From Candidatus Fimimonas sp. (GTDB taxonomy: Bacteria; Bacillota; Clostridia; Christensenellales; CAG-314), in the NCBI GenBank assembly GCA_045644945.1, contig JAZRHU010000016.1:1-53475 (forward strand): a stretch of DNA of 53,475 bases, written 5' to 3'. The notes below the pieces were generated by a model. It did not search any database, was not told the DNA's origin, and saw nothing but the letters and a program-made list of their open reading frames with translations. This document shows positions 5,128 to 47,064 of the stretch, one piece after another; the stretch's first letter is position 1, and each line of letters opens with the position of its first letter. The translations under genes and the position numbers were made by a program.

Positions 5128-5673
5128 GTGGGATTGTTGAATTGGTTAAAAAACAAGTCTAATAAAGGAAATCTCAATGCAGACTTGCAACAAGCATTGA
5201 GTTTATCAAGAGAAGGAAAGCATATAGAGGCATATCCGATTTTTGAAAGATTATATTATAAGCAACGCAATGCAACCAATAGGTTTAATTTGTTTCAATG
5301 TGCTGTATATTGCGGAAAAACCGAAATTGAAAATAAATTATATGAGGAGTTGAAGTGCTATTCCCCAAATCCGAAAAAAGAGCCGATGGAGTTAAGTGGT
5401 TGCTTTGTTAGATATTCTTATGCCTATATTCTTTGCGATGTGGGTAGAAATCGTGAAGCGATTGAAATAGTTGATTATCTTATTTATGTTATTTCTCATT
5501 ACAAAATCACTGATCCTACGTTTTTGTACATAAGAGGAATTCCCACGGCACAAATGGTTTATGAATTGATCAAAAAAACATTTGACGATGATAAAGTACA
5601 ACTCGAGGAATATAAGATTAAACTTGTATCATTGTTGGATGATGATACAAAAAAATACATTCTTGAAGAATAA
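5128..5673 (+). CDS. Hypothetical protein, 181 aa (GTG start)
   Basis: ORF with a GAGGGAG-like RBS. It ends 6 nt before the radical SAM gene. No family recognised. Confidence 0.55.
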   Translation: MGLLNWLKNKSNKGNLNADLQQALSLSREGKHIEAYPIFERLYYKQRNATNRFNLFQCAVYCGKTEIENKLYEELKCYSPNPKKEPMELSGCFVRYSYAYILCDVGRNREAIEIVDYLIYVISHYKITDPTFLYIRGIPTAQMVYELIKKTFDDDKVQLEEYKIKLVSLLDDDTKKYILEE

Positions 5674-5679
5674 ATATGT

Positions 5680-6543
5680 ATGAGAAAGTTTAAGCAAATT
5701 TATGTAGAAATAACCAACATATGCAATCTGGATTGTTCATTTTGTCCCAAAAACAGTCGCCCCAAAAGGTTTATGACTGTGGAGGAGTTTGATAAAATCA
5801 CAGACGAAATTTCTCCCCTAACAAACACCATTTGTTTGCATCTAATGGGGGAGCCTTTGTTGCACCCAAATATTAGCCAAATATTTGAAATTTGCAATGC
5901 AAAAAATTTGAAAGTGCATCTAACAACAAACGGAACGCTTATCAAACAAAATTTGGACTTGCTAAAATCTGGTTGTGCAAAAAAGATTTCCGTCAGTTTG
6001 CACAGTTTCGAAGCAAACAACAATGCCAATTCCTTGCAAAACTATCTACAAGATACACTTTCTTCTTGCAAGCAAATTGCCGAAAACAGCCCAACCTATA
6101 TCGAGTTTAGATTGTGGAATGAGTCTAGTGACGAAAGTGCTAAAAACTCACTAAACAAAAAGATACTGGAAGTTATCGACAAAACATTTAACACAAATCT
6201 GCTCACGATGGAGTTGCAACGTAACACAAGGATAACGGACAAAATTATTCTAAGCCTTGCCGATGTTTTCGAGTGGCCCATCAACACAGAGCACAAAGCA
6301 AAAAACAGCGTAAAATTCTGCTACGGATTACGTTCGCATTTTGGAATTTTGTGTGATGGAACAGTGGTTGCTTGTTGTTTGGATGGCGAAGGAAAGCTTG
6401 CGCTTGGAAATATATTCGAAGACAGTATATCCAACATCTTGAACTGTACGCGGGCGCAAAACATTTACAAAGGATTCACCGACAGAAACACAACGGAGGA
6501 ATTTTGCAAAACTTGTACTTTTGCAAACAAGTTTGTCCGTTAA
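5680..6543 (+). CDS. Radical SAM protein with a Cys-rich SPASM-like C-terminus, 287 aa
   Basis: CNLDCSFC (CxxxCxxC) at the N-terminus. C-terminal cysteines: CYGLRSHFGILCDGTVVACCLD ... CKTCTF. Confidence 0.85.
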   Translation: MRKFKQIYVEITNICNLDCSFCPKNSRPKRFMTVEEFDKITDEISPLTNTICLHLMGEPLLHPNISQIFEICNAKNLKVHLTTNGTLIKQNLDLLKSGCAKKISVSLHSFEANNNANSLQNYLQDTLSSCKQIAENSPTYIEFRLWNESSDESAKNSLNKKILEVIDKTFNTNLLTMELQRNTRITDKIILSLADVFEWPINTEHKAKNSVKFCYGLRSHFGILCDGTVVACCLDGEGKLALGNIFEDSISNILNCTRAQNIYKGFTDRNTTEEFCKTCTFANKFVR

Positions 6544-6656: not shown

Positions 6657-7262
6657 ATGAACCAAGTAAAGATAGGAAAATTTATTGCCGAATGTCGAAA
6701 AAAGGCAAACTTAACACAAGCGCAGTTGGCGGAAAAACTCAACATCACCGACAAAGCAATTTCCAAGTGGGAAAGAGGCATCGCAATGCCTGATGCTTCC
6801 ATCATGCTTGAGCTTTGCGATATCCTTGGTATCAGCGTAAACGAGCTACTAGTTGGCGACAAAATCAGCGCAGAAAACAACACCAAACAAAACGAACAAC
6901 TTTTGCTCAACATGGCTAACGAATTGCAAAGCAAAAACAAAACAATTTGGAGTGCAATGTGGACAATCATGATAGTAAGTATCATTGGATTGATTGGCGG
7001 TTTGGCAGTTGTAGCATTTTTTGTACCAGAGGGTGTATGGCAACTTGTTGCCATCTTGGTTCTTTGCGCGCTCTTCATCATTCCTTGTTTTTACGCACTA
7101 AAACTTGAGGTCAGCGTAGGCGCTTACAAATGCAAAAATTGCGGTCACGAGATTGTTCCCACCTACAAAGAAGCACTCAATGCCATGCACATGGGAACCA
7201 CCCGTTATCTAAAGTGTCCCAAATGCAACAAGCGTACGTGGTGTAAAAAGGTGCTAAAATAG
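6657..7262 (+). CDS. XRE-family helix-turn-helix regulator with transmembrane segments and a C-terminal zinc ribbon
   Basis: IGKFIAECRKKANLTQAQLAEKLNITDKAISKWERG is a classic Cro/C1 HTH. Two hydrophobic helices follow, then CKNCGH...CPKCNK. Confidence 0.85.
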   Translation: MNQVKIGKFIAECRKKANLTQAQLAEKLNITDKAISKWERGIAMPDASIMLELCDILGISVNELLVGDKISAENNTKQNEQLLLNMANELQSKNKTIWSAMWTIMIVSIIGLIGGLAVVAFFVPEGVWQLVAILVLCALFIIPCFYALKLEVSVGAYKCKNCGHEIVPTYKEALNAMHMGTTRYLKCPKCNKRTWCKKVLK

Positions 7263-7470
7263 TAAACTGAATTTTTATCGAGGGGTTTATAAAGTCATAT
7301 TGGAAGACACTCGTGTTCTTTGCAATTGTGGGTGTTGTCGGTGGCTTTTTTACAGGCATTTACTTGTTGGACAGCTATCCAGCTGATATCAAACAGCAAC
7401 TTGTCAAGTGGTGTATTTTGTGTCAGTTATCATTTGACAATTTGCTCAATTTTGATAATATTTTAGCGGT

Positions 7471-7697: not shown

Positions 7698-9599
7698 TTG
7701 AAGCTTAAACATATTGGCAATTTCAATACCATCGATGCCTTTGTTTCTGACAAGATCGAGCGTGCAAGCGGTTGCGAAAAGTCTTTTGGACAACTATTTG
7801 AGCTTATGTTTGAACAAACAGACAACGTTTTTTGCGAGATGACAAGTGGTTACCGCATACAACAAGTTACCTATGGTCAGTGCAAACAGCAAATTGTCGA
7901 GTTGGCTCAAAAACTAAAAACATCCCTTGCTGATTTGCCATGTGGCGCAACAGTTGGTTTGCAAATGGACAATGGCGTTGGATTTGTGCAAAGCTTTTGG
8001 GCGATTTTGATGTGTGGATTCAATCCTTTGCTCATCAACTTGCGCTTGCCACAAAATTTGTTGGAGCGTGCGCTTGCCGATGCAAAAGTTCAAGCAATTG
8101 TTGCGTGCGAGGCAACACCTATTTTGCGCACCGTCACATTGGACAGTTTGCAAAATCAACCCCCAACACAACTAACCGAGTGGGGTAGCCATGTTGTGTT
8201 CACGTCCTCTGGCACAAGCGACAATGTAAAGTTGTGCTACTACAATGCGGAAAACTTTTTTTACCAAATTTCCACAAGTTTCGATATCATCAAAGCCTGC
8301 CCACAAATAGTTTCCAACTACGAAGGGGAAATCAAGTTGCTAGCATTGCTACCATTGTACCACGTGTTTGGCTTTATTGCCGTGTACTTGTGGTTTGCAT
8401 TTTTTGGACGCACCCTCGTGTTTTTAAAAGATTTAGCACCCCAAACCCTTGTGTCTACCATACGCAAGCACAAGGTAACTCACGTGTTTGCCGTACCGAT
8501 GGTTTTTGAAAAAATCTACAAACAAGCCATCAAGACAATCAAAGGCAAAGGGGACAAGACCTACAATAAATTTTGCAAGGCACTTAGAGTTTGCAACAAA
8601 AACAAAATTTTGGGCAAATTTATTGGCAAAGTGGCCTTCAAAGAAATTCGCGAAAAGATTTTTGGTAACTCTATCCGAATGTTTATATCTGGTGGTAGCG
8701 CCATCTCTAGGGAAACCGTGCAATTTTTCAATGCGATTGGCTACTTTATGGTAAATGGCTATGGCATGACGGAAATTGGCATTACTTCGGTGGAAACATC
8801 CGCCAACCCTCTACTTCGCAACCTTTGCTCCATCGGCAAACCATTTGGAGTTGCAAGCTACAAGGTGCAAGATGGTCAGTTGTACGTCAAAAGTAGGGCG
8901 CGTGCAAGCAAAATTGTACAAGACGGCAACGCCTTGATTGCCAATTTGGACGACTGGTTTGCAACAGGCGATTGTGCTTATCAGCAAAAAGGCCGTTTCT
9001 ACATCACCGGCCGAAATGACGACCTAATCATCTCATCCGCAGGCGAAAACATCAATCCTCAAGCCATCGAGGAGTGTATCAAAGTAGATGGTGTAGTGGA
9101 AAAGTGCCTTGTCAAAGGGGATAACGGCGCAATATTGGTGGCTTGCGTAAGGGCATTTTTGTCAACCAGCCAAATTGAACGTATCGAAAGTCAAATTGTC
9201 GAAGTTCTAAAGGCGCAAGGGATTTTGAGTGAACTAGAAAAAATCATCATCACCCAAACACCTCTCACAACGGAAGACGAGTTCAAAGTTAGTCGCGAGC
9301 GTATTCGCAAACGTATTCAAAGTGGCGAAATTATCGCTTGTCAACCAAAGACTCAACAAGAGCAAGCCAACGACCTCGAACAAGAACTAATTGCAATGCT
9401 AGCCGATGTTCTAGGTACCGATGTGCAAATTCAACCAAGTTCCGACATCTTTGTCGACCTAAATGGCACAAGCTTGGACTACTTTACGTTTACCTACAAA
9501 GTTAGGGATAGATTCGAGCTTGCCGAAGACTTTTTCCAAGGTGTATCCCTTACCACCGTAAAAGAATTTGCCAACAAAATAATGGATAGTTTAAAGTAA
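7698..9599 (+). CDS. AMP-dependent synthetase/ligase fused to a C-terminal carrier (PP-binding-like) domain, 633 aa (TTG start)
   Basis: Adenylation motifs FTSSGTSDNVK, NGYGMTE and TGDCAYQQKGRFYITGRNDDLIISSAGENINP. The C-terminal ~80 aa carries DLNGTSLDYF (carrier-protein Ser motif). GGAGG RBS. Confidence 0.85.
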   Translation: MKLKHIGNFNTIDAFVSDKIERASGCEKSFGQLFELMFEQTDNVFCEMTSGYRIQQVTYGQCKQQIVELAQKLKTSLADLPCGATVGLQMDNGVGFVQSFWAILMCGFNPLLINLRLPQNLLERALADAKVQAIVACEATPILRTVTLDSLQNQPPTQLTEWGSHVVFTSSGTSDNVKLCYYNAENFFYQISTSFDIIKACPQIVSNYEGEIKLLALLPLYHVFGFIAVYLWFAFFGRTLVFLKDLAPQTLVSTIRKHKVTHVFAVPMVFEKIYKQAIKTIKGKGDKTYNKFCKALRVCNKNKILGKFIGKVAFKEIREKIFGNSIRMFISGGSAISRETVQFFNAIGYFMVNGYGMTEIGITSVETSANPLLRNLCSIGKPFGVASYKVQDGQLYVKSRARASKIVQDGNALIANLDDWFATGDCAYQQKGRFYITGRNDDLIISSAGENINPQAIEECIKVDGVVEKCLVKGDNGAILVACVRAFLSTSQIERIESQIVEVLKAQGILSELEKIIITQTPLTTEDEFKVSRERIRKRIQSGEIIACQPKTQQEQANDLEQELIAMLADVLGTDVQIQPSSDIFVDLNGTSLDYFTFTYKVRDRFELAEDFFQGVSLTTVKEFANKIMDSLK

Positions 9600-10237
9600 T
9601 GAAGAAAAAAGGTAATAAAAAAATAGGCCAATACTTTTTGTACGATTTTGTCAAAGCAACGGGCTTTTTGCCCGCATGGATTTGGCTTCGTCCCAAAATT
9701 ATACGCGAAAGCGACAAAGTGCCTAAACGTATCAAGGGTGGCGTACTGATTGCATCCAATCACGTTACCTACATCGACCCAATAATCTTACACTTGGCAT
9801 TTTTGCACCGCAGATTGCACAGCATTGCAACAAAAGACGTTGCCCAAAACAAGCTTCGCAAAATGTTCTTTACTGTGGCAAACTGCATTTTTATCGACAA
9901 ACAAAACTTTTCGATGTCAAGCCTGCGCGAAATTTGCGATCGCCTCCGAGAGGAAAAGGCCGTAGTCATTTTTCCCGAGAGTTCCGTACACGAGCAAAAT
10001 GTAGTGCGCGAGTACAAAAGTGGTGTTGTGTTGATGTCCGCACTTAGCAAAAAACCCATTTTGCCGGTGTGCATTATCAAAGGCAAAAAGAAACTTTCAC
10101 GCGTAAAGGTGGTAATTGGCGAGCCAATTGATATTGTGTCTATGTATGGGCCTATGCCCACAGCAGATCAAATAGATCAAGTTTGTCAAATGCTCAAACT
10201 CAAAACGGAAGAGTTGTTAAACAAGTACAATAACTAG
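9599..10237 (+). CDS. PlsC-family (lysophospholipid) acyltransferase, 212 aa
   Basis: HX4D motif NHVTYIDP and FPES motif. The start overlaps the upstream stop by 1 nt (TAATG). Confidence 0.8.
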   Translation: MKKKGNKKIGQYFLYDFVKATGFLPAWIWLRPKIIRESDKVPKRIKGGVLIASNHVTYIDPIILHLAFLHRRLHSIATKDVAQNKLRKMFFTVANCIFIDKQNFSMSSLREICDRLREEKAVVIFPESSVHEQNVVREYKSGVVLMSALSKKPILPVCIIKGKKKLSRVKVVIGEPIDIVSMYGPMPTADQIDQVCQMLKLKTEELLNKYNN

Positions 10238-10258
10238 CAATGTAAAAAGGGTAAGTTT

Positions 10259-11758
10259 ATGACAGAATCAGTTTTTAAAAAATACACGTCAGCAGAAAAT
10301 TGGAACAAGATTGTCGACTACGCAAACGTAACACGCATGTGGAAAGACTGCACAAGTTGCTACGCGGATTGTGTTGCGATTGTGGATAACGACACGTACA
10401 CGTATGCTCAGCTTGACGAACAAGTGGCACTTGTACGAGGACTTTTGACGGCCAATGGCATCGCTCAAGGCGACAGAGTGGGTATCTACATGCCAAACTC
10501 TGTTCACTTTGCAATTTCCTACTTGGCAGTAACAACACTTGGTGCGGTTGCAGTGTTGTTGCCTCCACATCTCGATCAAAACGCATTGTTTGGTTGCTCG
10601 TTTAAGTATCAACTAAAGGGTTTGTTCTACCATTCGACATTGGCAGACAAATTGCCATTGCTACAAAACAACAATCCTTCAGTTTTGCTTTGGAACGAGT
10701 GCGATCGTGCACAATTACCCGCCCCTGCTGTGGACGTTGATGGAAGTGCGCCATGCACAGTCATCTTTACCGGTGGCACAACAGGCAAAAACAAAGGCGC
10801 ATTGCTATCCCATCAAGCAGTTATGCGCGGTGTAAAAAATGGGTGCTATGGCACAAGCGATGTGTTTGGTCTTAGATATCTACTCATTTTGCCTCTAACA
10901 CACGTATTTGGTCTAATTCGCAACCTCCTAACAAGTTTCTACACAGGTAGCACCTTGTTTATTTGCAAAAATAACAAGGACATGTTCCGTGATATTGCAA
11001 TGTTCAAGCCAACAATTTTGGTGCTTGTTCCAGCGCTTGCGGAAATGGCCCTCAACCTGTCTAAACAATTTGGAAAAAACATGTTGGGCCCCGACCTTAA
11101 AACCATCATCTGTGGTGCGGCAACAGTCAATCCCTACCTTGTAAAGGAGTACCAAAAGTTTGGTATCACACTTTTGCCTGGCTACGGCCTTACCGAAAGT
11201 GCCAACCTTGTAAGTGGCAACCCTCGTAGTTTGGAAAAACCCGAGTCGGTTGGCTACATCTACGATGGTATCGACTACAAAATTGTAGATGGCGAGTTGT
11301 GGATCAAGGGCATCAACGTTATGGATTGCTACATCGACGAGCCACAGGAAAATCAAATGTCCTTTGAGGATGGCTACTTCAAAACGGGCGACCTTGTTCG
11401 TTTGGACGAGGATGGCATGCTCTACATTGTTGGTCGCATCAAGGAAGTGATAGTTCTTCCAAGTGGCGAAAAGGTTTCCCCTGCGGAAGTGGAGTGCGCC
11501 TTCAACGAGTTGGAAGAGGTTCAAGATAGCCTTGTTTACCTAAACGAGGATGGAACTCTCACCCTGGAAATTTTGCCAAGAGCCGTTGTAATGGCAACAG
11601 TTTCTGGCGACAAAAACGCACACCTAAAAGAACAAATCGACATGGTCAACAACAAGTTGCCATCCTTTATGAGAATTAGCAAAATCGTAGTACGTACCTC
11701 CGATTTTGTACGTTCTCCCAGTATGAAAATAGTGAGAAATAACAATGCAAAGAAGTGA
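10259..11758 (+). CDS. AMP-dependent acyl-CoA/acyl-ACP synthetase-like ligase, 499 aa
   Basis: FTGGTTGKNKG, PGYGLTES and TGDLVRLDEDGMLYIVGRIKEVIVLPSGEKVSPAEVE. Confidence 0.85.
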   Translation: MTESVFKKYTSAENWNKIVDYANVTRMWKDCTSCYADCVAIVDNDTYTYAQLDEQVALVRGLLTANGIAQGDRVGIYMPNSVHFAISYLAVTTLGAVAVLLPPHLDQNALFGCSFKYQLKGLFYHSTLADKLPLLQNNNPSVLLWNECDRAQLPAPAVDVDGSAPCTVIFTGGTTGKNKGALLSHQAVMRGVKNGCYGTSDVFGLRYLLILPLTHVFGLIRNLLTSFYTGSTLFICKNNKDMFRDIAMFKPTILVLVPALAEMALNLSKQFGKNMLGPDLKTIICGAATVNPYLVKEYQKFGITLLPGYGLTESANLVSGNPRSLEKPESVGYIYDGIDYKIVDGELWIKGINVMDCYIDEPQENQMSFEDGYFKTGDLVRLDEDGMLYIVGRIKEVIVLPSGEKVSPAEVECAFNELEEVQDSLVYLNEDGTLTLEILPRAVVMATVSGDKNAHLKEQIDMVNNKLPSFMRISKIVVRTSDFVRSPSMKIVRNNNAKK

Positions 11759-11993
11759 AATCAGACAAAAACTAAATGACATTTTTGCCCTTACTGTAAA
11801 GGGTGCTCAAAACGTTGCAGATATCGACGAAAACTGCAACCTTGTAACAGACTTGGGGCTAAACTCCATTGGATTGCTTTACACAGTAATTGCCATCGAG
11901 GAGTTTTTTAACATGCGCTTTGACGATTTGTCATTTGGCGATTTGCAAACTGTCAAGGATGTTATTGACTACATTCAATCCAAGGTCGACTAA
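11745..11993 (+). CDS. Stand-alone acyl carrier protein, 82 aa
   Basis: DLGLNSIGLLYTVIAIEEFF carrier-protein helix II with the Ser attachment site. Overlaps the upstream gene by 14 nt. Confidence 0.8.
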   Translation: MQRSEIRQKLNDIFALTVKGAQNVADIDENCNLVTDLGLNSIGLLYTVIAIEEFFNMRFDDLSFGDLQTVKDVIDYIQSKVD

Positions 11994-12997
11994 TGAAGTG
12001 GGACTACAACCAACCACAAAGTGGTGATGCAGTAAGGGTAAAGCTTGGCGAAATCTATCACTACGGCATTTTTGTATCTTTGGACGAAGTCATTCAATTT
12101 GGCCTTGCCCCCAACCTAAATGTCAACATCAAAAGCCAAGATATTGCCGTTTGCACATCCACTATCGAGGAGTTTGCGCAAGGCGGTTTTGTGGAACGTG
12201 GCATTGCGGAAAAGGCCGATGGCAAAAAGCGCAACGCTAAACAAATCATCAAATTTGCTAGGAGCAAACTAGGTCAAAAGGGTTACAACATCATTCACAA
12301 CAACTGCGAGCATTTTGTCTACGAATGCATTTTTGGTGTCAAAAAGTGTAGCCAAACAGACCAAGTTCGACAATTCTTTTTGTCTATCCCCATTTGTCAC
12401 GTCTACACAGCAAAAATTCCTCAAGATATCACAATTTTGCCACTTGCTTGCATCGAGCGCACCAAGGAAATTGATTCCGTTTCCCATCCTCAAGTCAAAT
12501 TGGAAAAGTACTGCGTATGGAAGTTGTTGGAGTACGCGCTAAACAAGTCCTTTGGCTACAAGGCGCAAGACATGCTTTTCGAAAAGTCCAAAGGCAAGTG
12601 GAAAACTTCCAATTGCTTTTTCTCCCTATCCCACAGTAACGGTGTGGTTGCATGTGCCGTATCTCGCCGGGAAGTTGGTGTCGATATCGAGTTGATTGAT
12701 GCATCTCGTACCAATGCGATAATGCGCGTGCTAAACGCTTCCGAAAAGGAAAAAATCAAAGGCCTTGATGGTGTTGAGTTGGATAGTGCACTTGTTGCCA
12801 TTTGGTCGCAAAAGGAAAGTATCTTCAAAACACTAGATAGCAAGCATTTTGTGCCAAACAAAGTGGATACCACCGGTCAAAACGTAACAAGCAAAATTAT
12901 CGATGTGGACGGCAAGCAGTATGTTTTGTCTACTGCAACCCCATTTGTGGAAAAAATCCGCTATTTCGAAGAGGTCGATTTGCAAAACTTGGTTTAA
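11993..12997 (+). CDS. Fusion of an LRAT/NlpC-P60-like domain and a 4'-phosphopantetheinyl transferase, 334 aa
   Basis: The N-terminal HYGIF ... NNCEHFVYE pair matches the His and Cys boxes of LRAT/PLAAT-type thiol acyltransferases. The C-terminal GVDIE and WSQKESIFK match Sfp/AcpS-type PPTase motifs. 1-nt stop/start overlap with the ACP gene. Confidence 0.75.
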   Translation: MKWDYNQPQSGDAVRVKLGEIYHYGIFVSLDEVIQFGLAPNLNVNIKSQDIAVCTSTIEEFAQGGFVERGIAEKADGKKRNAKQIIKFARSKLGQKGYNIIHNNCEHFVYECIFGVKKCSQTDQVRQFFLSIPICHVYTAKIPQDITILPLACIERTKEIDSVSHPQVKLEKYCVWKLLEYALNKSFGYKAQDMLFEKSKGKWKTSNCFFSLSHSNGVVACAVSRREVGVDIELIDASRTNAIMRVLNASEKEKIKGLDGVELDSALVAIWSQKESIFKTLDSKHFVPNKVDTTGQNVTSKIIDVDGKQYVLSTATPFVEKIRYFEEVDLQNLV

Positions 12998-13025
12998 ATT
13001 TGTATAACTTGTCAACACAAAAGGT

Positions 13026-14054
13026 ATGATGGATTTCATGCCTTTTTTTCTTGTCCTAGTGGTAATTTGTTGTGGTCTAAACGCCATTGCATCGCTAGTT
13101 TATCTGTTGTTATTCCGCCGAAAGAACCGCCCCAACTATGCCCTTCAACCGGGCGAATATTGTGTGGAAAAAATGCAAAATTGTCCCTGCAGACAAGAGT
13201 TTTACTATCTTGCAGGCCACTCTACTCTAAAGGGATACTACTACCCATCTACGACCCAAAAACTAGTGGTGCTGGTGCACGGATTTCGTTCCGGTGCGGA
13301 CGATTTTTTGCCACTAACTAGGTCGCTTGTCAACAATGGTTTTTGTGTTTTTGCCTTTGATGCGACAGGAACCTACGACTCCAAAGGTGGGTCTCTTGTA
13401 GGCATGTGCCAGACGTTGGTTGACTTGGACAACACACTAAAATTCATTCAAACAACTCCGCTAAACAAGCACCAATTGTACCTTATTGGACACAGTTTGG
13501 GCGGGTATGCTGTGCTTTCCGCGTTGCAACTGCACCCCAACATAAAGGGCTGTGTTGCCCTTGCTCCGGTGTGCGATGCCACCAAAATATTCGTGCAAAA
13601 AGCACGCCAGTACATTGGCGTGCTAGCAACAATTTGTCAGCCAATTTTCGATACAATCCAAAGGATAACTTTTGGCAAGTATGTCAACTGCAACAGCATC
13701 AACGGCATCAATTCTACGACTGCCCCGGTGCTAATTGTGCAGGGCACAAAGGACAAGGTTGTCCCACCAAATACCATATCGGTTACCGCGTACAAATCAC
13801 AAATTGCAAATCCCAATGTTTGTTTTTGCCAAGTGGAAGGCGTCTTTGGCGGTCATAGCAATGTGTGGCACTCGCGTGAGTCTGTCGAGTACAAAAACGC
13901 CGTTGTCAAATGTGCCAAACGCATCAAAAGTCGCACAATGCGCAACAGTCAAAAACTTGCAAGCTACTACCAAAAGGTGGATGATGCTTTGTACAGCCAA
14001 GTAGACAACAATCTCGTAGAAAAAATAGTGGAAACGTTTTCAAAAGCCCTCTAA
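13026..14054 (+). CDS. Membrane-anchored alpha/beta hydrolase, 342 aa
   Basis: N-terminal hydrophobic helix, nucleophile elbow GHSLGG, VLVHGF oxyanion region. Confidence 0.8.
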   Translation: MMDFMPFFLVLVVICCGLNAIASLVYLLLFRRKNRPNYALQPGEYCVEKMQNCPCRQEFYYLAGHSTLKGYYYPSTTQKLVVLVHGFRSGADDFLPLTRSLVNNGFCVFAFDATGTYDSKGGSLVGMCQTLVDLDNTLKFIQTTPLNKHQLYLIGHSLGGYAVLSALQLHPNIKGCVALAPVCDATKIFVQKARQYIGVLATICQPIFDTIQRITFGKYVNCNSINGINSTTAPVLIVQGTKDKVVPPNTISVTAYKSQIANPNVCFCQVEGVFGGHSNVWHSRESVEYKNAVVKCAKRIKSRTMRNSQKLASYYQKVDDALYSQVDNNLVEKIVETFSKAL

Positions 14055-14213: not shown

Positions 14214-15146
14214 ATGGAAAAATTTGTAATTTTGCCCGATGTAACTTGCGATTTGGGTCCCGAAATTAGAGAGTTTTTTGGCTTGACAGACTATGTGCCT
14301 GGCTATGTAAATATCGATGGAAGAGAAATCAAAGTTGATTTGGATTGGCAATGCATTTCTCGAAATGAATTTTACAAAACATTGATGGACAAAAAGGTAA
14401 AAGTTACTAGTGCATCAGCTAGCCCCGAAGAGTTTTACCAAGCGTTCAAAAAATACACAGATCAAGGATATGCCGTTTTGAGCATGACTCTTTCCTCCAA
14501 GATCAGCGTAACATACAATGTGGCATGTGGTGCAAGAGACAGACTTTTGCAAGAGTGCCCCAATGCCAAGGTGTACTGCTTGGATTCTTTGAGAATGTCC
14601 GGCTCTTTTGGCTTGCTTGTTGCCTATGCTTTGCAACTTCAACAACAAGGCAAAAGCTTCGAGGAAGTTATTGCTTGGTTGGAGCAAAACAAAGTCAAAG
14701 TTCACCAAATGGGCCCCATTGATGACCTCAGATTTATCGCTAGACGTGGCAGAATTTCCACAGGCAAGGCAATTTTCGGCAACTTGGTGGGCGTAAAACC
14801 CATGGGCGACTCCAATGCAGATGGCTACGTAACAGTTTTGTCCAAGGTAAAAGGTATCAAAAAAGCCATTTCCGCAACTGCTTTGTACCTCAAGGCAATG
14901 GCTACGGATATCGAAAATCAGTATGTATTTATCTACCACAGCGATAGGGAAGAGTTGGCTTTGGAACTAAAGAACAAGGTAGAGCAAACTGTAAACTGCA
15001 AAAAGATTTTTATTTCCGATGTTTACCCATCTTGTGGCACAAACATCGGCCCAGGTATGCTTAGTGTGTACTTTTTAGGAGAGGAAATTTCCGCCGATAG
15101 CGCAACGGAAAAACAAGCGCTTTTGGATGCAATTGCAAACAGCTAA
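14214..15146 (+). CDS. DegV family fatty-acid-binding protein (FakB-like), 310 aa
   Basis: Length and overall DegV-like sequence (ILPDVTCDL..., SSKISVTYN). It sits directly upstream of a DAK2/FakA-like gene. Confidence 0.75.
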   Translation: MEKFVILPDVTCDLGPEIREFFGLTDYVPGYVNIDGREIKVDLDWQCISRNEFYKTLMDKKVKVTSASASPEEFYQAFKKYTDQGYAVLSMTLSSKISVTYNVACGARDRLLQECPNAKVYCLDSLRMSGSFGLLVAYALQLQQQGKSFEEVIAWLEQNKVKVHQMGPIDDLRFIARRGRISTGKAIFGNLVGVKPMGDSNADGYVTVLSKVKGIKKAISATALYLKAMATDIENQYVFIYHSDREELALELKNKVEQTVNCKKIFISDVYPSCGTNIGPGMLSVYFLGEEISADSATEKQALLDAIANS

Positions 15147-15161
15147 TTGAGAGGAACACAA

Positions 15162-16790
15162 ATGATAAACACAATAACCGGCTGTACCTACCTTCAAATG
15201 GTGGAAAGCGGTATAAACAATGTTCAAAAGAACAAACAAATGCTCAACGATCTAAATGTATTCCCCGTTCCCGATGGCGATACCGGCACAAACATGGCCA
15301 TGACGCTAAAGTACGGTTTGGGCGGATTTGTCGAAAACGACAGTTTGGAGTTGGCAGCAAAAAGTTTTGCATCCTTTGCCGTGTTTGGCGCAAGGGGTAA
15401 CTCTGGTGTAATTTTGTCGCAATTCCTCAAAGGTGTTGCCGAGGGCTTTGATGGTTATCAAAGTGCCGATACATCCGTTTTCTTCAATGCATTGAAAAAA
15501 GGTTGCGAGTTTGCCTATGCATCAGTAGCCAAACCTGTCGAAGGCACAATGCTAACAGTCATTCGCGAAGCTATCGAAGCTGTCGAGCCCAAAATGCCCA
15601 TGGAAAGTTTCCAAGACCTATTGGATTTGTTCACAACCATGGCGGAGCACTCTCTTAGCGAAACTCCCAACAAATTGCCTGTACTCAAAAAGGCAGGCGT
15701 TGTGGATAGCGGTGGAGCAGGTATTGTTTGTTTCTTCGATGGCATGGCTAAGTACCTCAACGGTCAACAGGTCAATGTTCTCGAGGAGCACGACAATCAA
15801 ACAGTGGTGGACTTTTCTTCCATCAACAAGGACACTCCACTTGACTACGGCTATTGCACCGAAGGATTGATTCAGCTAAAAATTGATGTTTCCGATTTCC
15901 AAATCGAGGAGTTCCGTCAAGAACTTTCCCATTTGGGCACATCGGTGGTTTGCACCTTGGAGGTGGACAAAGTCAAAATGCATGTCCACACCAAAAAGTT
16001 AGACAAAGTTTTCCGTTTTTGCCAAAAGTTTGGCGAGTTTTTGACCATCAAGATTGAAAATATGAGTGTTCAAAAACTGCAAAACAAGGCGGAGGAAACT
16101 CGCAAGTTCTTGGTTAGCGAACAAATGGGTAGCAATTTTAACATCGTTGCTGTTGCTTCCAACCCCTACCTGCAAAAAGAGTTTGTCAACATGGGTGCAG
16201 ACGTTGTTATCATGAGCGAAATTACCCCCGCCTCACAAGACTACATCGATGCTTTTTCGCACACAAACGCCAAGGAAATTTTGGTGTTCCCCAATGGATC
16301 AAATGCTATTTTGACAGCCATTCAAGCGGGCGGTTTGGTGCGTGACAAAAAAATCACCGTTCTCAACAGCCGTTCCATGGCCGAGTGTATGTTGGCTTTG
16401 CCCGTAATCGACTTTGATGGCACAGTTGACGACGCATTTGATTCGGCAAATCAAGTAATCAACAATTGTTCCAAAGCTTTTGTTTACCATGCCGTAAAGG
16501 AAATCACTTTCGGCAAAGACCAAGTTCGCAAAAACGACTTCTTCTCCATGGCAAACAGCAAGCAAATCATCACCATCCAAGAAACTTTGGACAAAGCCGT
16601 TTTGGAAACGGTAAAAATTGTACTCAACCAAAGGGAAGCAAGTCTAATCACCATTTTCTATGGCGATGGTATGGCAGAGGAGTACATCGACTATCTGTCC
16701 GAAAAAATCACATCGCTTGGCTTGGATGTGGAAATCAACACCGTTTGCACAATGGAAAGTTTCTACAGTATTGTGCTAACGTTCGAGTAA
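15162..16790 (+). CDS. fakA: DAK2-domain fusion protein, YloV/FakA family (fatty acid kinase subunit)
   Basis: LNVFPVPDGDTGTNMAMT and GARGNSGVILSQ are DAK2 motifs, and about 540 aa is the YloV length. Start set to ATG 15162 (GAGAGGAA RBS) rather than TTG 15147. Confidence 0.75.
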   Translation: MINTITGCTYLQMVESGINNVQKNKQMLNDLNVFPVPDGDTGTNMAMTLKYGLGGFVENDSLELAAKSFASFAVFGARGNSGVILSQFLKGVAEGFDGYQSADTSVFFNALKKGCEFAYASVAKPVEGTMLTVIREAIEAVEPKMPMESFQDLLDLFTTMAEHSLSETPNKLPVLKKAGVVDSGGAGIVCFFDGMAKYLNGQQVNVLEEHDNQTVVDFSSINKDTPLDYGYCTEGLIQLKIDVSDFQIEEFRQELSHLGTSVVCTLEVDKVKMHVHTKKLDKVFRFCQKFGEFLTIKIENMSVQKLQNKAEETRKFLVSEQMGSNFNIVAVASNPYLQKEFVNMGADVVIMSEITPASQDYIDAFSHTNAKEILVFPNGSNAILTAIQAGGLVRDKKITVLNSRSMAECMLALPVIDFDGTVDDAFDSANQVINNCSKAFVYHAVKEITFGKDQVRKNDFFSMANSKQIITIQETLDKAVLETVKIVLNQREASLITIFYGDGMAEEYIDYLSEKITSLGLDVEINTVCTMESFYSIVLTFE

Positions 16791-16808: not shown

Positions 16809-18176
16809 ATGCAAAAGATCACTAGCAGAAAAAAACTCACACTGTACGGATGTGCTGGTATGGGTGTAAACATGCTCAACATCATCATGGGTTCCTACCT
16901 TTGTAGCGCTTTGTTGGTAGGTGGCTTCGAAAGCAAAATCGAGTCCTGGACATATCTTGGCAAAGACCTTGTTGTTGCCGGTTTGTGGGCTGTGTTTGTA
17001 TTTATTGCAAAGGCATTGGATGGTATCATCGACCTTCCATTTGCTACTCTTGCCGACAAAATGAAAACAAAATTGGGCCGTCGTAAGACTGCAATTTTGG
17101 TAGGTTTTATCCCAATGATTGTTGCTTACTTGTTGTTCCTTGTGCCAATCAACCCCTACGAGTCCATTGGCAACACCATTTGGTTTGGCCTTTTGCTTTG
17201 CATTTTCTATGCATTCTACACATTGACCATGCTCACTTACTACGCAACTTTTGCCGAAGTGTGCAAGGACGAAAGAGACATGATCTACCTATCCAATGTC
17301 AAGTCAATTTTGGACGTTGTGTACTTTAGCTTGGGCTTTGCGCTTTTGCCAGTATTCATCAGCATGGATATCAACATTCGTATTGTTGCGCTCATTTTCT
17401 TGCCACTTTCTTTGACTATGCTCATTCCAATGTTCATGCTCAAGGAAGGCCAACAGGAAGGTCAACAAGAAATTCGCACACTTACACTTGGTCGTGCACT
17501 CAAATGCTCCTTTAGCAACAAAAACTACATCTTCTGGTTGTTTACTATTTCTGTATCCACCATTGGTTTGCAATTGTTCCTTGGTGGTATCAACGAAGTG
17601 TTCTCTACAACAGGCCTAAACATGACCTTTGTTATGGCTTCCTCCTTCGCTCCGGTACCATTCACACTCATTTTGTATAACAAAGTAGTCAAAAAGTATG
17701 GTATCGCAACGGCATACAGATACTCTTTGATAATCTTCTCCCTCGGCATGATCATCATGTTCTTGTGTTGTATGTTCCACGCTCAAATGCAACCACTCCA
17801 CTTGAACTTGATTGCTATTTTGGGCGGTATCTTTGTATCCTTCTCCCTCGGTTCATTCTTCTCCATCACATACACCGTACCAACAACTTTGGCCAATCGC
17901 GAGTTCGAAAAAACAGGCAATGGTGTGTCCGGCATGTACTTTGCCGTTCAAGGTTTGTTCGAAGGTATCGCAGCAGGTATCGCAACAGGCCTAATCTTGG
18001 TAACACTCAAAAAGTACGATGTAATTCAGTTGTTGCCAATCATCGCTTGTGTTGCTTGCGGTATCACATTTGTAATGACAATGTTCTTCCCCAAGGAACT
18101 TTCCACAATTGGTAAGGTGCAAGCAGATTGCCAACTTCAATCACCATCCGAGCCACAAACGGATTCTATCAACTAA
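16809..18176 (+). CDS. MFS transporter (MFS_2/GPH-like), 455 aa
   Basis: About 12 hydrophobic helices. The conserved DGIIDLPFATLADK loop after TM2 is typical of the GPH/MFS_2 group. Confidence 0.75.
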   Translation: MQKITSRKKLTLYGCAGMGVNMLNIIMGSYLCSALLVGGFESKIESWTYLGKDLVVAGLWAVFVFIAKALDGIIDLPFATLADKMKTKLGRRKTAILVGFIPMIVAYLLFLVPINPYESIGNTIWFGLLLCIFYAFYTLTMLTYYATFAEVCKDERDMIYLSNVKSILDVVYFSLGFALLPVFISMDINIRIVALIFLPLSLTMLIPMFMLKEGQQEGQQEIRTLTLGRALKCSFSNKNYIFWLFTISVSTIGLQLFLGGINEVFSTTGLNMTFVMASSFAPVPFTLILYNKVVKKYGIATAYRYSLIIFSLGMIIMFLCCMFHAQMQPLHLNLIAILGGIFVSFSLGSFFSITYTVPTTLANREFEKTGNGVSGMYFAVQGLFEGIAAGIATGLILVTLKKYDVIQLLPIIACVACGITFVMTMFFPKELSTIGKVQADCQLQSPSEPQTDSIN

Positions 18177-18192
18177 TCTAACAGGTAAATCG

Positions 18193-18843
18193 ATGTTTTT
18201 TTACGAGTTTTTTCGCATCTTCGGTTTGTTGATGGGCTGGCCCATCCAATGGATATTTTTCAAGAAAAAAGTCTATTACGAAGACAAAAAGTACAAAAAC
18301 TGGAAAAAGGGCGGAAAACTATTTATTTCCAATCACTACAACGTATTTGACTACGGCCTAAACTGCTTTATGGTCTTCCCACGAAAGCTTTTTGCTGTGA
18401 CGTCAGAGTTACCATTCAAAAGCAAGTTGTTGCGATTTGGAATGAAGTTTTTCGGCACGATACAAGCCAATCGCATCACAGGCGACATGAGTTTTATCGA
18501 CAAGTCTGCCGAAGTCATTCAAAAGGGCAAACTTGTGCAAATCTTCCCCGAAGGACGTAACACTCCCGATGGCCAAATGCACCCTTTCAAACCCAGTTAT
18601 ATCATGATTGCCTCCATGGCAAATTGTAAAATTGTCCCCATTATCAGCGATGGTAACTATGGACTTTTCAAGCGTGTAAGTGTTATTGTAGGTAACGAAA
18701 TTGACCTAGGCGAACTGTTGGGCAAGGATCCAGCCGAGTTTACCAAGGAAGATATCCAACTTGCAAACGACTTGATTTATCAAAAGTCGCTACAATTGCG
18801 TCAAACGCTGGAACAACTAAAACAAAGGAAAGGCAAAAAATAA
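18193..18843 (+). CDS. PlsC-family acyltransferase, 216 aa
   Basis: HX4D variant SNHYNVFDY and the FPEGR motif. Start moved to ATG 18193, just after the MFS stop. Confidence 0.75.
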   Translation: MFFYEFFRIFGLLMGWPIQWIFFKKKVYYEDKKYKNWKKGGKLFISNHYNVFDYGLNCFMVFPRKLFAVTSELPFKSKLLRFGMKFFGTIQANRITGDMSFIDKSAEVIQKGKLVQIFPEGRNTPDGQMHPFKPSYIMIASMANCKIVPIISDGNYGLFKRVSVIVGNEIDLGELLGKDPAEFTKEDIQLANDLIYQKSLQLRQTLEQLKQRKGKK

Positions 18844-19823
18844 TGCAACATCTATTACTTAACTTTTTTACACATCCTGCATTTTTGTGGACAGTAGCGG
18901 GGCTACTTATTTCTGGTGTAGCGTTTTGGATTGTATCCTACCTTGTTGCATCACACTTGGTGTATGTAAAAACACTCAAGCGCAACTCCAAAGACCAATG
19001 GGGCCGAGACTACCCATCCGATTTGAACGAGCGTTCCGTTGCAATGTACCAAGCAGGTATCGCTTGGGCGGAACTCAACAAGCAACACAAAATTGATGTT
19101 CACATCGTAAACGAAGGCCTCAACTTGTACGGAGAGTACTACGACTTTGGCTACGACAGATGTGTGTTCATTTTGTCCGGCCGAACCGAGGCACTCAAGT
19201 ATGGCTACTACTTTGCTATCCCCTACGCTAAACTTGGTTTTAACGTACTAGTTGTCGATCCACGTGGCCATGGTCTTTCCGATGGCGACTACAATACCAT
19301 TGGCTTTGAGGAAAGCAAAGACCAAGTTGCTTGGATACGTCACCTTCAACAAAAGTTTGGTGTCAAAAGCGTGGTTTTGCATGGCATTTGCATTGGTTCA
19401 GCAGGTGGCTCGTACGCCCTCACTTCTGGAAACTGCCCACCAATTGTCAAGGGATTTGTTGCCGAAGGTATGTATGCAACATTTTACGAATCAATGAAAA
19501 ACCACCTCATAGAAAGGAAAAAACCCGTATTTATCATGATTGATTTGATTGATGCTCAAATGAAAAAGCACACAGGTCACACAATGAAATATGGGCCAAT
19601 CAATGTGATCGACAAACTTGATGTGCCATTCATGATGTTGCACAGCAAAAAGGATCAATATTCCAAGGCCGATCTTGCGCGAAAACTCTTTGACAAAGCC
19701 GGTTCAAAGCAAAAAGAAATTGTTTGGTTTCCCGAAGGCGATCACTCCATGTTGCGCATAACCGACACTCAAAGATATGACGAAAGTATCGAAAATTTTG
19801 TTAATAAAATATACAATGAATAA
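18843..19823 (+). CDS. Membrane-anchored alpha/beta hydrolase, 326 aa
   Basis: N-terminal TM helix, hydrolase-like core (DPRGHGLSDG; GICIGS nucleophile-elbow variant). 1-nt overlap with the upstream stop. Confidence 0.7.
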   Translation: MQHLLLNFFTHPAFLWTVAGLLISGVAFWIVSYLVASHLVYVKTLKRNSKDQWGRDYPSDLNERSVAMYQAGIAWAELNKQHKIDVHIVNEGLNLYGEYYDFGYDRCVFILSGRTEALKYGYYFAIPYAKLGFNVLVVDPRGHGLSDGDYNTIGFEESKDQVAWIRHLQQKFGVKSVVLHGICIGSAGGSYALTSGNCPPIVKGFVAEGMYATFYESMKNHLIERKKPVFIMIDLIDAQMKKHTGHTMKYGPINVIDKLDVPFMMLHSKKDQYSKADLARKLFDKAGSKQKEIVWFPEGDHSMLRITDTQRYDESIENFVNKIYNE

Positions 19824-19834: not shown

Positions 19835-20326
19835 GTGAAGAATTGCAATTACTGTGGTAGCAAGCTTGATGATTCTGCAACGTTTTGTTCAACTTGTGGC
19901 AAATTAGTAAACGACTCTCAAGACAACCTTACCAAACAATCCACAACAGAGTATGTCAATCCCATCACCGAAGACAAAAAGTCCTCTTTGGGCCGAAAAC
20001 TTTTGATAGATTCTATCATTGGACTTGTACTAAGCATTGTTGCGCTTATCATTCATGTGAGTTTTTGTCCGATGTTTTTGATGATGGATATGTTCGGAGA
20101 TGCGTTCGGCATTATGCTTGTGTCAATACCTGTAAACATTGTAGGCACTTGTTTTAGCGGTAGTGCACGTGCCAAACTCAAAAAGTACAAGTCAATGTAT
20201 GGACAAACAAGTGGACCTGCAAGCGTAGGCAAGGGACTGTCCATTCCAGCCAATATCATAAATATATTCCTGTTGGCTTTCCAAACATTTATGTTTGTTT
20301 TTACATGCGTAATGTTGAATATCTAG
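19835..20326 (+). CDS. Zinc-ribbon membrane protein, paralog 1 (GTG start)
   Basis: CNYCGSKLDDSATFCSTCG followed by hydrophobic helices. Same architecture as the next three genes. Confidence 0.7.
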   Translation: MKNCNYCGSKLDDSATFCSTCGKLVNDSQDNLTKQSTTEYVNPITEDKKSSLGRKLLIDSIIGLVLSIVALIIHVSFCPMFLMMDMFGDAFGIMLVSIPVNIVGTCFSGSARAKLKKYKSMYGQTSGPASVGKGLSIPANIINIFLLAFQTFMFVFTCVMLNI

Positions 20327-20408
20327 TACCAATTTTATAACATGTCAATCTTCAGCTCAGGGCAAAGCTGTAAAAAATTTGTCCAACTTTACATAGGAGG
20401 TAAAAAAT

Positions 20409-20912
20409 ATGTATTGTAAGTATTGTGGAACTCAAATTTCAAACGACTCAAAATTTTGCCACAACTGCGGAAGTAATGTTGAACCTCAAGGTGATGTTGC
20501 GCTTCAACCAGTTGTAGAGCAACCTGTGGTAGCTGAACCAATCGAACCTGTCAAACCAAAAGTTAGCATTTCCAAAAGTATCAAATCTTTGGTGTTCGGT
20601 GCAATCGGTATGGAGTTTGCCATCATGGCAATGATATTCATTATTGAATTTATTGCAGTATTTTCAATTAGTGTTGGAACAGAGGACAACGGAGCAATCA
20701 TTGCACTTGTGATTGTATTTTTGCCAATTTCCATCATTGGCCTATGCTTTGCTAATGCAGCAAAGAGCAATTCGGACGAGTACTGTGCATTGTCTGGTAG
20801 TCCAAATGGTTTTTCAAAAACCGGCCGTATTTTGGGCATCACAGCCAGAGTGCTTAGCATCATTAGTATTGCAATTTACGCGTTGTTTGGTACCATTGCT
20901 ATGTTCCAATAA
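20409..20912 (+). CDS. Zinc-ribbon membrane protein, paralog 2
   Basis: CKYCGTQISNDSKFCHNCG plus helices. AGGAGG RBS in a leader shared with paralog 4. Confidence 0.75.
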   Translation: MYCKYCGTQISNDSKFCHNCGSNVEPQGDVALQPVVEQPVVAEPIEPVKPKVSISKSIKSLVFGAIGMEFAIMAMIFIIEFIAVFSISVGTEDNGAIIALVIVFLPISIIGLCFANAAKSNSDEYCALSGSPNGFSKTGRILGITARVLSIISIAIYALFGTIAMFQ

Positions 20913-20969
20913 CAGTTTGAGTGCAGTAAAAATAGTCCCAAAGCTAAAAAATAATAGGAGGAACTTCTA

Positions 20970-21458
20970 ATGAATTGTAAGTATTGTGGAAAAGACCTAT
21001 TAGACGGTTCAAAGTTTTGCCCAACATGTGGCAAAATGGTTATTGACGAACAAAACATAACAACCGAGTATGTTGCTGACGAAGTAGTTGATCCAACTGT
21101 AGCAGCATCAAAAAACTATCTTGCGGGCCAAATTCTTTCCAAGGCTATCACAAGTTTGGTGCTTTCGGCTGTATCTATCACGTTTTCAATGTTTATGTTC
21201 GTGATTGGGGGTGTGATGGAATCTGTAGGCGTAATTGTAATTGGAACGTTTATCGGATTGGCGCTAAATATTTTTGGATTGGGCGTCAAAAACAAAGCAA
21301 AGGCAAATGCTCGCGTATTTGCATCTAAATACGGCGAAACAACTGGTAAAGCTAAAATTGGAAAAATTTTGTGTATTCCTGCAACAATTTTGAACATAAT
21401 CCTACTTGTTTACCACGCTATGATGTTTTTACCACTCCTCGCAGCGATAACTCAATAA
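20970..21458 (+). CDS. Zinc-ribbon membrane protein, paralog 3
   Basis: MNCKYCGKDLLDGSKFCPTCGK is identical to the first 22 aa of paralog 4. The C-terminal GKILCIPATILNIILLVY is also shared. Confidence 0.75.
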   Translation: MNCKYCGKDLLDGSKFCPTCGKMVIDEQNITTEYVADEVVDPTVAASKNYLAGQILSKAITSLVLSAVSITFSMFMFVIGGVMESVGVIVIGTFIGLALNIFGLGVKNKAKANARVFASKYGETTGKAKIGKILCIPATILNIILLVYHAMMFLPLLAAITQ

Positions 21459-21564
21459 TGTATCTAAAGTGGCAGTTTGCAAATGTGTAGATAGTCAACA
21501 AACACTCTGCATAAAATTGCAAAGCTGTAAAAACTTGTCCAACCATACACAGGAGGCAAAAAAT

Positions 21565-22196: not shown

Positions 22197-22325
22197 CAAC
22201 CGAAACTCCCAAGGGAGCCCTCTCGGTTGACGCAAGCGCCGAACTAAGGGTTCTCATCCCTCGGCAAACAAAAAACCCACACTTTTTCAAGTGCAGGTTT
22301 AGTTTGGCGGAAGTGGAGGGATTCG
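22197..22325 (-). repeat. Duplicate of the tRNA-Ser(UGA) downstream block plus the last 21 nt of the tRNA (displaced 3' fragment)
   Basis: About 129 bp, near-identical to 22505-22634. Identity stops in the T-loop (…GGGATTCG|). Confidence 0.8.
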
Positions 22326-22576: not shown

Positions 22577-22607
22577 ACAAAAAACCCACACTTTTTCAAG
22601 TGCAGGT
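22577..22607 (-). terminator. Terminator of tRNA-Ser(UGA)
   Basis: The minus strand reads ACCTGCACTT-GAAA-AAGTGTGGGT followed by TTTTTT. Confidence 0.6.
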
Positions 22608-22613
22608 TTAGTT

Positions 22614-42842: not shown

Positions 42843-42846
42843 CTCA

Positions 42847-47057: not shown

Positions 47058-47064
47058 GAGGACT

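Follow-up and report, generated by a model that had tools for sequence, protein, structure and literature searches.

What does a protein do in which a relative of lipid-modifying acyltransferases and an enzyme that primes acyl carriers are joined in one polypeptide? The question is raised by an open reading frame (ORF) at 11993-12997 on the forward strand of contig JAZRHU010000016.1 (assembly GCA_045644945.1) from Candidatus Fimimonas sp., a member of the Clostridia. The contig was analysed as a single stretch of 53,475 nucleotides (nt), hereafter the window. The ORF encodes a two-domain protein of 334 amino acids (aa), an LRAT/PLAAT-like half being followed by a phosphopantetheinyl transferase (PPTase) half. 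LRAT/PLAAT proteins are known as phospholipid-remodelling enzymes of animals and as viral 2A proteins, and their distant permuted relatives are bacterial toxins. A first, sequence-only reading of the window had proposed the fusion from four short motifs, had placed its start within the stop codon of a dedicated acyl carrier protein (ACP) gene inside a run of acyl-activating and acyl-transfer genes, and knew of no description of such an architecture. The observation of the fusion was confirmed: the domain matches lie far beyond chance, and profiles, predicted structure and catalytic residues all bear it out.

A lipid-enzyme domain and a PPTase domain in one protein

The N-terminal half (aa 1-126, 11993..12370, forward strand) was assigned by Pfam, by profile and by fold. 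Pfam LRAT (PF04970) matched aa 7-116 over model positions 2-118 of 120, with an E-value of 3.2e-16 and 60.2 bits against a cutoff of 24.3. A family profile made from a 121-sequence homolog alignment and searched against PDB sequences matched PLAAT3/PLA2G16 at E 8e-7 (query 4-126). AlphaFold returned a confident model of the 334-aa protein, with a predicted local distance difference test score (pLDDT) of 90.7 and a predicted TM-score (pTM) of 0.71, in which both domains form a single chain without a long linker. Foldseek comparison of its N-terminal ~115 aa gave PLAAT/HRASLS proteins as the best structural matches throughout. The catalytic domains matched were those of PLAAT3 (7zom; target TM-score 0.83, root-mean-square deviation 2.6 Å), PLAAT4 and HRASLS2, and over the three of them target TM-scores ranged from 0.77 to 0.84 and deviations from 2.6 to 3.3 Å.

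Across the 121 sequences, His23 (codon 12059-12061), Gln35 (codon 12095-12097) and the stretch N104-C105-E106-H107 (Cys105 codon 12305-12307) were invariant and F108 nearly so, and the HQCH pattern was present in nearly all of 268 retrieved relatives aligned with a hidden Markov model (HMM). The catalytic order is permuted, with His23 ahead of Cys105 and its NCEHF box, and such a circular permutation is what sets the LRAT-like and YiiX-like branches apart within the NlpC/P60 superfamily (PMC3142127; PMC12994826). In the family-profile alignment Gln35, which is polar but not a His, falls on His35 of PLAAT3, and some of the 268 relatives carry Ala, Glu, Ser or His there; mutagenesis of LRAT suggests that the third triad residue may be non-essential (PMC3142127). 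By profile, predicted fold and cysteine box, the domain can be assigned specifically as LRAT/PLAAT-like and as a member of the Pfam LRAT family. It stands outside the mammalian PLAAT subfamily for lack of the C-terminal anchor, and it has Gln where PLAAT carries the third triad His. The N-terminal call of the sequence-only reading was thus not a spurious match. The permuted order, the NCEHF box and PLAAT3 as best fold, together with an LRAT score above cutoff, also led to the rejection of a canonical NlpC/P60 peptidase. An alpha/beta-type (type II) editing thioesterase was rejected as well, the domain being a papain-fold Cys enzyme and not an alpha/beta-hydrolase with a Ser-His-Asp triad, so that editing could apply only by analogy.

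The C-terminal half (aa ~131-334 plus the stop codon, 12383..12997, forward strand) was likewise identified by Pfam, profile and fold. Pfam ACPS (PF01648) matched aa 228-285 with an E-value of 8.3e-9 and 35.9 bits (cutoff 25), and the family profile matched Sfp at E 1.4e-14 (query 179-287), with the PPT domains of fungal fatty acid synthase (FAS) also among the matches. Foldseek aligned the C-terminal ~210 aa of the model with Sfp, AASDHPPT and PptT over 213-252 columns at E 4e-12 to 3e-5, the Sfp structures 1qr0/4mrt giving E 4e-12 over 230 columns. All PPTase motifs are intact, namely FSLSHS (H214), GVDIE (D231, codon 12683-12685, and E233) and WSQKESIFK (W271, K274, E275 and K279). H214, G229, D231, W271, K274, E275 and K279 were invariant across the 121 sequences, E233 was more than 90% conserved, and the full RHDEWKEK pattern was found by HMM alignment in 166 of the 268 relatives. 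Residues of this half align with H90, D107, E109, E151 and K155 of Sfp, whose roles are established. The C-terminal domain therefore reads as a complete Sfp-type PPTase by the sequence and model-based features examined, in agreement with the original proposal, and the four motifs from which that proposal started are located in the translation at aa 21-27 (IYHYGIF), 102-111 (HNNCEHFVYE), 229-233 (GVDIE) and 271-279 (WSQKESIFK).

A sequence scan of the whole protein found no signal peptide and no transmembrane-like or hydrophobic segment, and the protein is predicted to be soluble. The stop codon of the upstream ACP gene and the start codon of the fusion share nt 11993 in the arrangement TAATG (TAA stop, ATG start), which corresponds to the proposed 1-nt overlap and would couple the two genes translationally.

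Occurrence and annotation

Relatives of the LRAT::PPTase fusion are encoded at 525 loci in a collection holding one genome per species, and the fusion is therefore widespread and not a one-off. Neighbourhoods were retrieved for 80 of these loci. The ORF was unbroken in all of them, and all 80 came from metagenome-assembled genomes (MAGs) of uncultured gut or rumen Clostridia, including Christensenellaceae, Oscillospiraceae, Acutalibacteraceae, Ca. Scatosoma, Ca. Coproplasma and others. One Faecousia MAG accounts for two of the loci, L025 and L062, which lie on different contigs, each with a ligase-ACP-LRAT::PPTase block; this suggests paralogous operons or a binning duplicate.

In the protein databases, 439 clusters matched, and both Pfam domains were recorded in 119 of the best 120. 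The names attached to them are generic, either 'lecithin retinol acyltransferase family protein' or '4'-phosphopantetheinyl transferase superfamily protein'. No NCBIfam equivalog covers the fusion, and its PPTase half scored far below every equivalog cutoff. The literature searched contained no paper on LRAT together with a PPTase, nor on this architecture or its pathway, and a search for transcript evidence found related sequence only in DNA gut metagenome runs, at no more than 20% of the sampled words. The impression that the architecture had no described role thus held up: it is catalogued without one, and no description appears to exist of its operon, of the series of decaying PPTase halves or of the PlsC::LRAT fusion, all reported below.

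A conserved lipid operon around the fusion

In the window, the genes from 7698 to 14054 (all on the forward strand, like the rest of the operon) stand close together, with junctions of -1, -14 and -1 nt where they overlap, and are preceded by a promoter-like site at 7434..7461 (forward strand; TTGACA-16-TAATAT with an upstream TG). This site was picked up by consensus scan only and lies in the 435-nt gap that separates the start of the operon from a helix-turn-helix (HTH) regulator gene. The first gene (7698..9599) encodes a 633-aa AMP-ligase (AMP-binding, E 4e-37) with a C-terminal carrier domain (PP-binding, aa 562-625), an arrangement labelled AMP_ACP here, whose carrier Ser lies in LNGTSLDYF. 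Its stop is overlapped by 1 nt by the start of a 212-aa PlsC-type acyltransferase (PlsC1, 9599..10237; PF01553, E 2e-19; HX4D motif HVTYID). A 499-aa fatty-acid AMP-ligase follows (10259..11758; AMP-binding, E 4e-60), whose best NCBIfam matches are long-chain fatty-acid ligases and which overlaps by 14 nt the start of the dedicated 82-aa ACP (11745..11993; PP-binding, E 8e-6; Ser in DLGLNSIG). NCBIfam ACP models matched this small protein at E 1e-10, and because every one of these matches fell below its cutoff, the carrier is best described from its sequence as a divergent ACP.

Downstream of the fusion lies a 342-aa alpha/beta hydrolase, predicted to be anchored in the membrane (13026..14054; Hydrolase_4, E 1e-21; N-terminal transmembrane segment at aa 1-31; GHSLG nucleophile elbow). 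Next come a DegV (FakB-like) and FakA fatty-acid kinase pair identified by Pfam (14214..16790) and a 455-aa MFS_2-family transporter with 11 hydrophobic transmembrane-like segments (16809..18176; MFS_2, E 2e-24). A second PlsC-type acyltransferase (PlsC2, 18109..18843; PF01553, E 4e-17; motifs HYNVFD and FPEG) is listed with a TTG start that overlaps the MFS gene by 68 nt, and its true start is for this reason probably further downstream. The series closes with a second membrane-anchored alpha/beta hydrolase of 326 aa (18843..19823; transmembrane segment at aa 12-40; GLSDG motif). For the transporter, no NCBIfam match and no PDB sequence match was found, the latter with the single protein as well as with a 10-sequence profile. 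Both PlsC paralogs matched, besides a generic AGPAT domain model, the Aas models named 'acyl-[ACP]--phospholipid O-acyltransferase'. Since both carriers retain their Ser and both PlsC paralogs their HX4D motif, the partner proteins look functional from their sequences. With AMP-ligases, PlsC acyltransferases, alpha/beta hydrolases and DegV/FakA on its flanks, the fusion does sit in the acyl-metabolism setting originally described for it.

Much of this arrangement recurred in the retrieved loci, where same-strand genes were counted as present out of the eligible loci. The ACP gene was directly upstream of the LRAT gene in 77/80 loci and its stop overlapped the LRAT start (by -4 or -1 nt) in 66/74. 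PlsC1 was present in 70/73, the fatty-acid AMP-ligase in 68/75, PlsC2 in 59/71, an MFS_2 transporter, usually between AMP_ACP and PlsC2, in 53/65, and the AMP_ACP gene itself, located upstream of LRAT::PPTase, in 51/59. Behind the fusion, a membrane-anchored alpha/beta hydrolase was found in 37/69 loci and zinc-ribbon membrane proteins in 33/66. The conserved set thus comprises AMP-ligase::carrier, MFS_2, two PlsC, fatty-acid AMP-ligase, ACP, LRAT::PPTase and a membrane-anchored hydrolase. The window represents a rearranged variant of it, with MFS_2, PlsC2 and the second hydrolase downstream of the DegV/FakA pair, which itself adjoins the operon only here and in a few other loci (e.g. L004, L067 and L086).

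Several local departures from this set were seen. The 499-aa-type ligase between PlsC1 and ACP is missing from L007, L008, L039, L044, L046, L034 and L060; the first five keep a free ACP, and none was detected in the last two. In L001, L018 and L021, genes for a membrane protein of the TMEM164 family and for a flavin-reductase-like protein, located ~4.3-2.6 kb upstream of the fusion, replace the AMP-ligase::carrier/MFS_2/PlsC2 module. Human TMEM164 is a Cys-dependent phospholipid transacylase and, by analogy, the exchange may be a functional swap. A 423-aa protein in L086 (4993-6264) occupies the position of the two PlsC genes and is likely a PlsC-PlsC fusion. In the window, the operon is followed at 19835-22050 (forward strand) by four tandem paralogs of 163-193 aa, each with an N-terminal zinc ribbon and ~3 transmembrane segments and with only a weak TcaA-like N-terminal match; similar genes follow the operon in 1-5 copies in the loci counted above for zinc-ribbon proteins.

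The LRAT-like domain is the core and the PPTase an accessory

Searching the N-terminal domain alone against 1.84 billion representative proteins gave 1420 hits, 274 of them at E <= 1e-10, and the architectures of the 268 relatives retrieved were classed by HMM alignment. Among the best 150 of the 1420 matches, most were fusions of ~330 aa, and three other architectures were present. The simplest of these are stand-alone LRAT proteins of 130-150 aa. Two of them (L085 and L086; 138 and 146 aa) were checked on their contigs: the operon is the same, the LRAT gene takes exactly the place behind the ACP that the fusion holds elsewhere, and the flanks retrieved contained no PPTase gene.

A second group, 28 of the 268 relatives, retains intact LRAT residues and a degenerate PPTase half in proteins of 250-326 aa, P0124 with 283 aa being one example. 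These forms lack His214 and GVDIE, a deletion of ~50 aa has removed the helix with WxxKESxxK, and they sit in the same ligase-ACP-LRAT slot as the intact fusions. They are also interspersed among the latter: their nearest neighbours are intact fusions with 60-74% identity in the LRAT domain, which argues that decay of the PPTase occurred repeatedly. The dead remnant is nevertheless predicted to form a compact domain (pLDDT 91.8), which still matched Sfp at E 2e-4. An Aichivirus 2A structure, a viral member of the LRAT/PLAAT group, was also among the matches of this fold comparison.

In the third architecture, the LRAT domain is fused to PlsC (L084, 5505-6668) within an operon of AMP-ligase, PlsC and PlsC::LRAT that has neither a free ACP nor a PPTase gene. 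Its recurrence in two clusters with 61% identity to each other indicates that this fusion is real. Separately, in one 299-aa protein (P0141) the LRAT domain precedes a match (E 1.5e-23) to the C-terminal end of the catalytic domain of GH123 glycoside hydrolases, which could be a genuine unusual fusion or a metagenomic call that is chimeric or frameshifted.

The LRAT residues are essentially invariant across all of these architectures. It follows that the LRAT domain is the selected and indispensable core of the operon, while the PPTase is an accessory that has repeatedly been lost or has decayed.

A possible mechanism and its alternatives

How these parts could work together can be outlined in a few steps. 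With coenzyme A and Mg2+, the PPTase half would convert two carriers from the apo to the holo form, the free ACP and the one built into the 633-aa ligase, and owning this activity would make the operon independent of the other PPTases of the cell. The two ligases would load fatty acids onto both carriers, from which the PlsC enzymes would, in an Aas-like manner, transfer the acyl groups to lyso-glycerolipid acceptors. As predictions from domain content and retained motifs, these priming, loading and acylation steps have good support. Support is moderate for the formation of an acyl-Cys105 thioester by the LRAT-like half, which would with it carry out a deacylating or transacylating reaction. 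Acting like a PLAAT, it would remove an acyl chain from a glycerolipid ester, and the PlsC enzymes would re-acylate the resulting lyso-lipid with exogenous fatty acids, in what would amount to Lands-cycle-like remodelling or salvage. A phospholipid donor is favoured because the characterised members of the LRAT/PLAAT family are phospholipase A1/2 acyltransferases that use glycerophospholipid esters (PMC3142127; PMC10318531; PMC12994826), and the fusion of LRAT to the membrane-bound PlsC fits with an action at the membrane beside the re-acylating enzyme.

Taken as a whole, I give this combination of carrier priming by the PPTase and stripping of glycerolipid esters by the LRAT-like half an even chance of being correct. 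A number of observations speak against it. Mammalian PLAATs and LRAT depend on a membrane anchor, which is missing from the fusion protein, and the third triad residue of the latter is Gln and not the His of PLAAT. The tight coupling of the ACP and LRAT genes points to a direct ACP partner no less than to a phospholipid, and so does the retention of an ACP-binding PPTase fold even where it is catalytically dead. The transporter belongs to MFS_2 and not to the LplT type. Finally, two PlsC enzymes and two ligases could build lipid without any deacylation step at all.

Some of the same observations lead to a possible, if tentative, alternative: the LRAT-like half may take its acyl group from acyl-ACP onto Cys105, and not from a phospholipid, with the PPTase fold doubling as a docking surface for ACP. 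The acyl group could then leave by two outlets, either to an acceptor, as in a third acyltransferase of the operon, or to water, in a type-II-thioesterase-like clearing of mis-primed or mis-loaded carriers. The position of the ACP gene, directly upstream in 77 of the 80 loci and usually overlapping, would be accounted for, and this also holds for the stand-alone and degenerate forms; the fusion partner is moreover an ACP-binding enzyme, and the compact fold and residual Sfp match of its dead version suggest that a non-catalytic role has been kept. The predicted solubility of the protein and the five loci with a free ACP but without its ligase also fit, and BtrH provides the precedent of a papain-like acyltransferase with an ACP-bound acyl donor (PMC10318531). 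However, no characterised LRAT/PLAAT member uses a thioester donor, the stand-alone LRAT proteins work in the same operon without a PPTase fold, and the PlsC::LRAT operon has no free ACP gene. An editing function tied to priming would also leave the retention of LRAT after loss of the PPTase unexplained, and a pure proofreading role of the LRAT-like half for the PPTase was downgraded for the same reason, as every loss of the PPTase has left LRAT in place in the operon. Phospholipid and ACP would both be substrates if the LRAT-like half were a reversible phospholipid:ACP transacylase that moves acyl groups via Cys105 between a glycerolipid ester and the thiol of holo-ACP, yielding acyl-ACP without ATP. 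This would reconcile the phospholipid chemistry of the family with ACP coupling and retention of the PPTase fold, and it fits the loci whose free ACP has no cognate ligase. Yet the idea is purely inferential and without precedent in the LRAT family, and the two ATP-dependent ligases of most operons make an ATP-independent loading route unnecessary, so that I consider it rather improbable. In its general form, a carrier-coupled transacylase acting between glycerolipid ester and ACP thiol, with the PPTase fold, active or dead, as a built-in ACP docking module, the proposal is unlikely.

The remaining alternative is that the N-terminal domain has nothing to do with lipids, being a cell-wall peptidase of the NlpC/P60 type, a module without activity or with a regulatory role, or a chance match, or that two genes were read as one. 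The NlpC/P60 superfamily is indeed broad and consists mostly of peptidoglycan hydrolases, and weak secondary PPPDE/Peptidase_C97 matches were seen in some relatives. Against this stand the features that already separated the domain from canonical peptidases (His23 before Cys105, the NCEHF box, the LRAT score above cutoff and the PLAAT/HRASLS folds), the lack of any signal peptide or transmembrane segment, and a triad that is invariant in more than 250 relatives. An inactive N-terminal domain was likewise rejected. A misreading of two genes was dismissed given the unbroken ORF in the 80 retrieved loci and the single-chain fold without a long linker. Altogether, a non-lipid or artefactual origin is very improbable.

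Comparison with known systems

The N-terminal half shares with mammalian PLAAT1-5 (HRASLS) and LRAT the permuted NlpC/P60 fold, the order of His then Cys, the NCEHF box and a catalytic His on the second strand. It differs from PLAAT3 in having Gln35 where the latter has His35, and from mammalian PLAAT and LRAT in that a PPTase domain follows directly where they have a C-terminal membrane anchor, as well as in being prokaryotic, operon-encoded and ACP-coupled. The permuted superfamily also includes Tox-Act1, the type VI secretion system toxin TseH and YiiX/YaeF-like proteins with lipid-directed activities (PMC12994826; PMC3142127). In contrast to these secreted toxins or separate clades (DUF4105, YiiX), the domain described here belongs to the LRAT family proper and would be cytosolic, in a housekeeping-like lipid context and not in one of conflict systems. 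BtrH, the butirosin ACP:aminoglycoside acyltransferase, resembles it as a papain-like Cys enzyme that uses an ACP thioester (PMC10318531), but belongs to another papain-like family (BtrH_N, near C39/C70), is unpermuted and serves in antibiotic tailoring.

The C-terminal half has the two-lobed fold and the FSLSHS, GVDIE and WSQKESIFK motifs of the Sfp-type (group II) PPTases Sfp, AcpT, EntD, AusB and PptT, from which it is set apart by the N-terminal LRAT domain and by sister lineages with a dead or absent PPTase domain. The alpha-subunit of fungal type I FAS offers another case of a PPTase that is part of an acyl-processing protein and primes the carrier of that protein. There, however, a single AcpS-like lobe is attached to the C-terminus of a megasynthase, whereas here a full Sfp-type domain is joined to a small papain-fold enzyme.

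For the operon, the closest parallels are E. coli Aas/LplT, a lysophospholipid re-acylation system (PMC11416262), and the MFS-PlsC-ligase fusion PRK08633, which likewise combine a carrier-loading AMP-ligase, a PlsC acyltransferase and an MFS transporter. The operon differs from Aas/LplT in its separate and duplicated genes (two ligases, two carriers and two PlsC), its dedicated carriers, its own PPTase and its LRAT-family enzyme. Judged by its sequences, it appears Aas/LplT-like in logic but is not classed there: a ligase and an HX4D-bearing PlsC are present, while the transporter is of MFS_2 and not of LplT type.

Other features of the window

Upstream of the lipid operon, a 181-aa ORF without a Pfam match lies directly before a 287-aa radical SAM/SPASM enzyme (5128-6543, forward strand), and an XRE-type HTH membrane regulator (6657-7262) is located between this pair and the operon. 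Downstream, an almost exact direct repeat of ~129 nt is found at 22197-22325 and 22505-22634, with two exact blocks of 48 and 80 nt and a spacing of 308-309 nt. Its second copy includes the 3' 21 nt of a tRNA-Ser(tga) gene (22614-22702, reverse strand), with a tRNA-Leu(caa) gene following at 23136-23221, and the repeat may be a remnant of integration or duplication at the tRNA.

A 2770-aa ORF at 23648-31963 on the reverse strand contains five matches to the Listeria-Bacteroides repeat (Flg_new) and a YDG domain and probably encodes a cell-surface protein; the same repeat occurs in a 429-aa protein at 47029-48318. Between them, 34783-47057 (forward strand) is taken up by a run of large ORFs of 354-872 aa, mostly without a Pfam match, among them genes for a DUF2357 protein (40801-42087) and for an ATPase of the ABC/AAA_21 type (42057-42842). 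Further on, a TldD/PmbA pair occupies 48868-51611.

Implications

With this fusion, an LRAT/PLAAT-family protein stands at the heart of an operon of housekeeping type in uncultured gut and rumen Clostridia. The natural series of an intact PPTase, a dead fold, no PPTase and PlsC::LRAT is well suited to asking if a PPTase fold can take on a second use as an adaptor for ACP. Should the LRAT-like domain turn out to be a carrier-coupled transacylase, it would be the first ACP-linked member of LRAT/PLAAT and would provide an ATP-independent route between membrane lipid and acyl-ACP, as the hub of a lipid-remodelling pathway new to the literature, in hundreds of species of gut Clostridia. More broadly, the operon points to a route of lipid uptake or remodelling in dominant gut anaerobes, possibly fed by fatty acids from the host or its diet, with a bearing on membrane adaptation, on resistance to inhibitors of fatty-acid synthesis and on the production of bioactive lipids.

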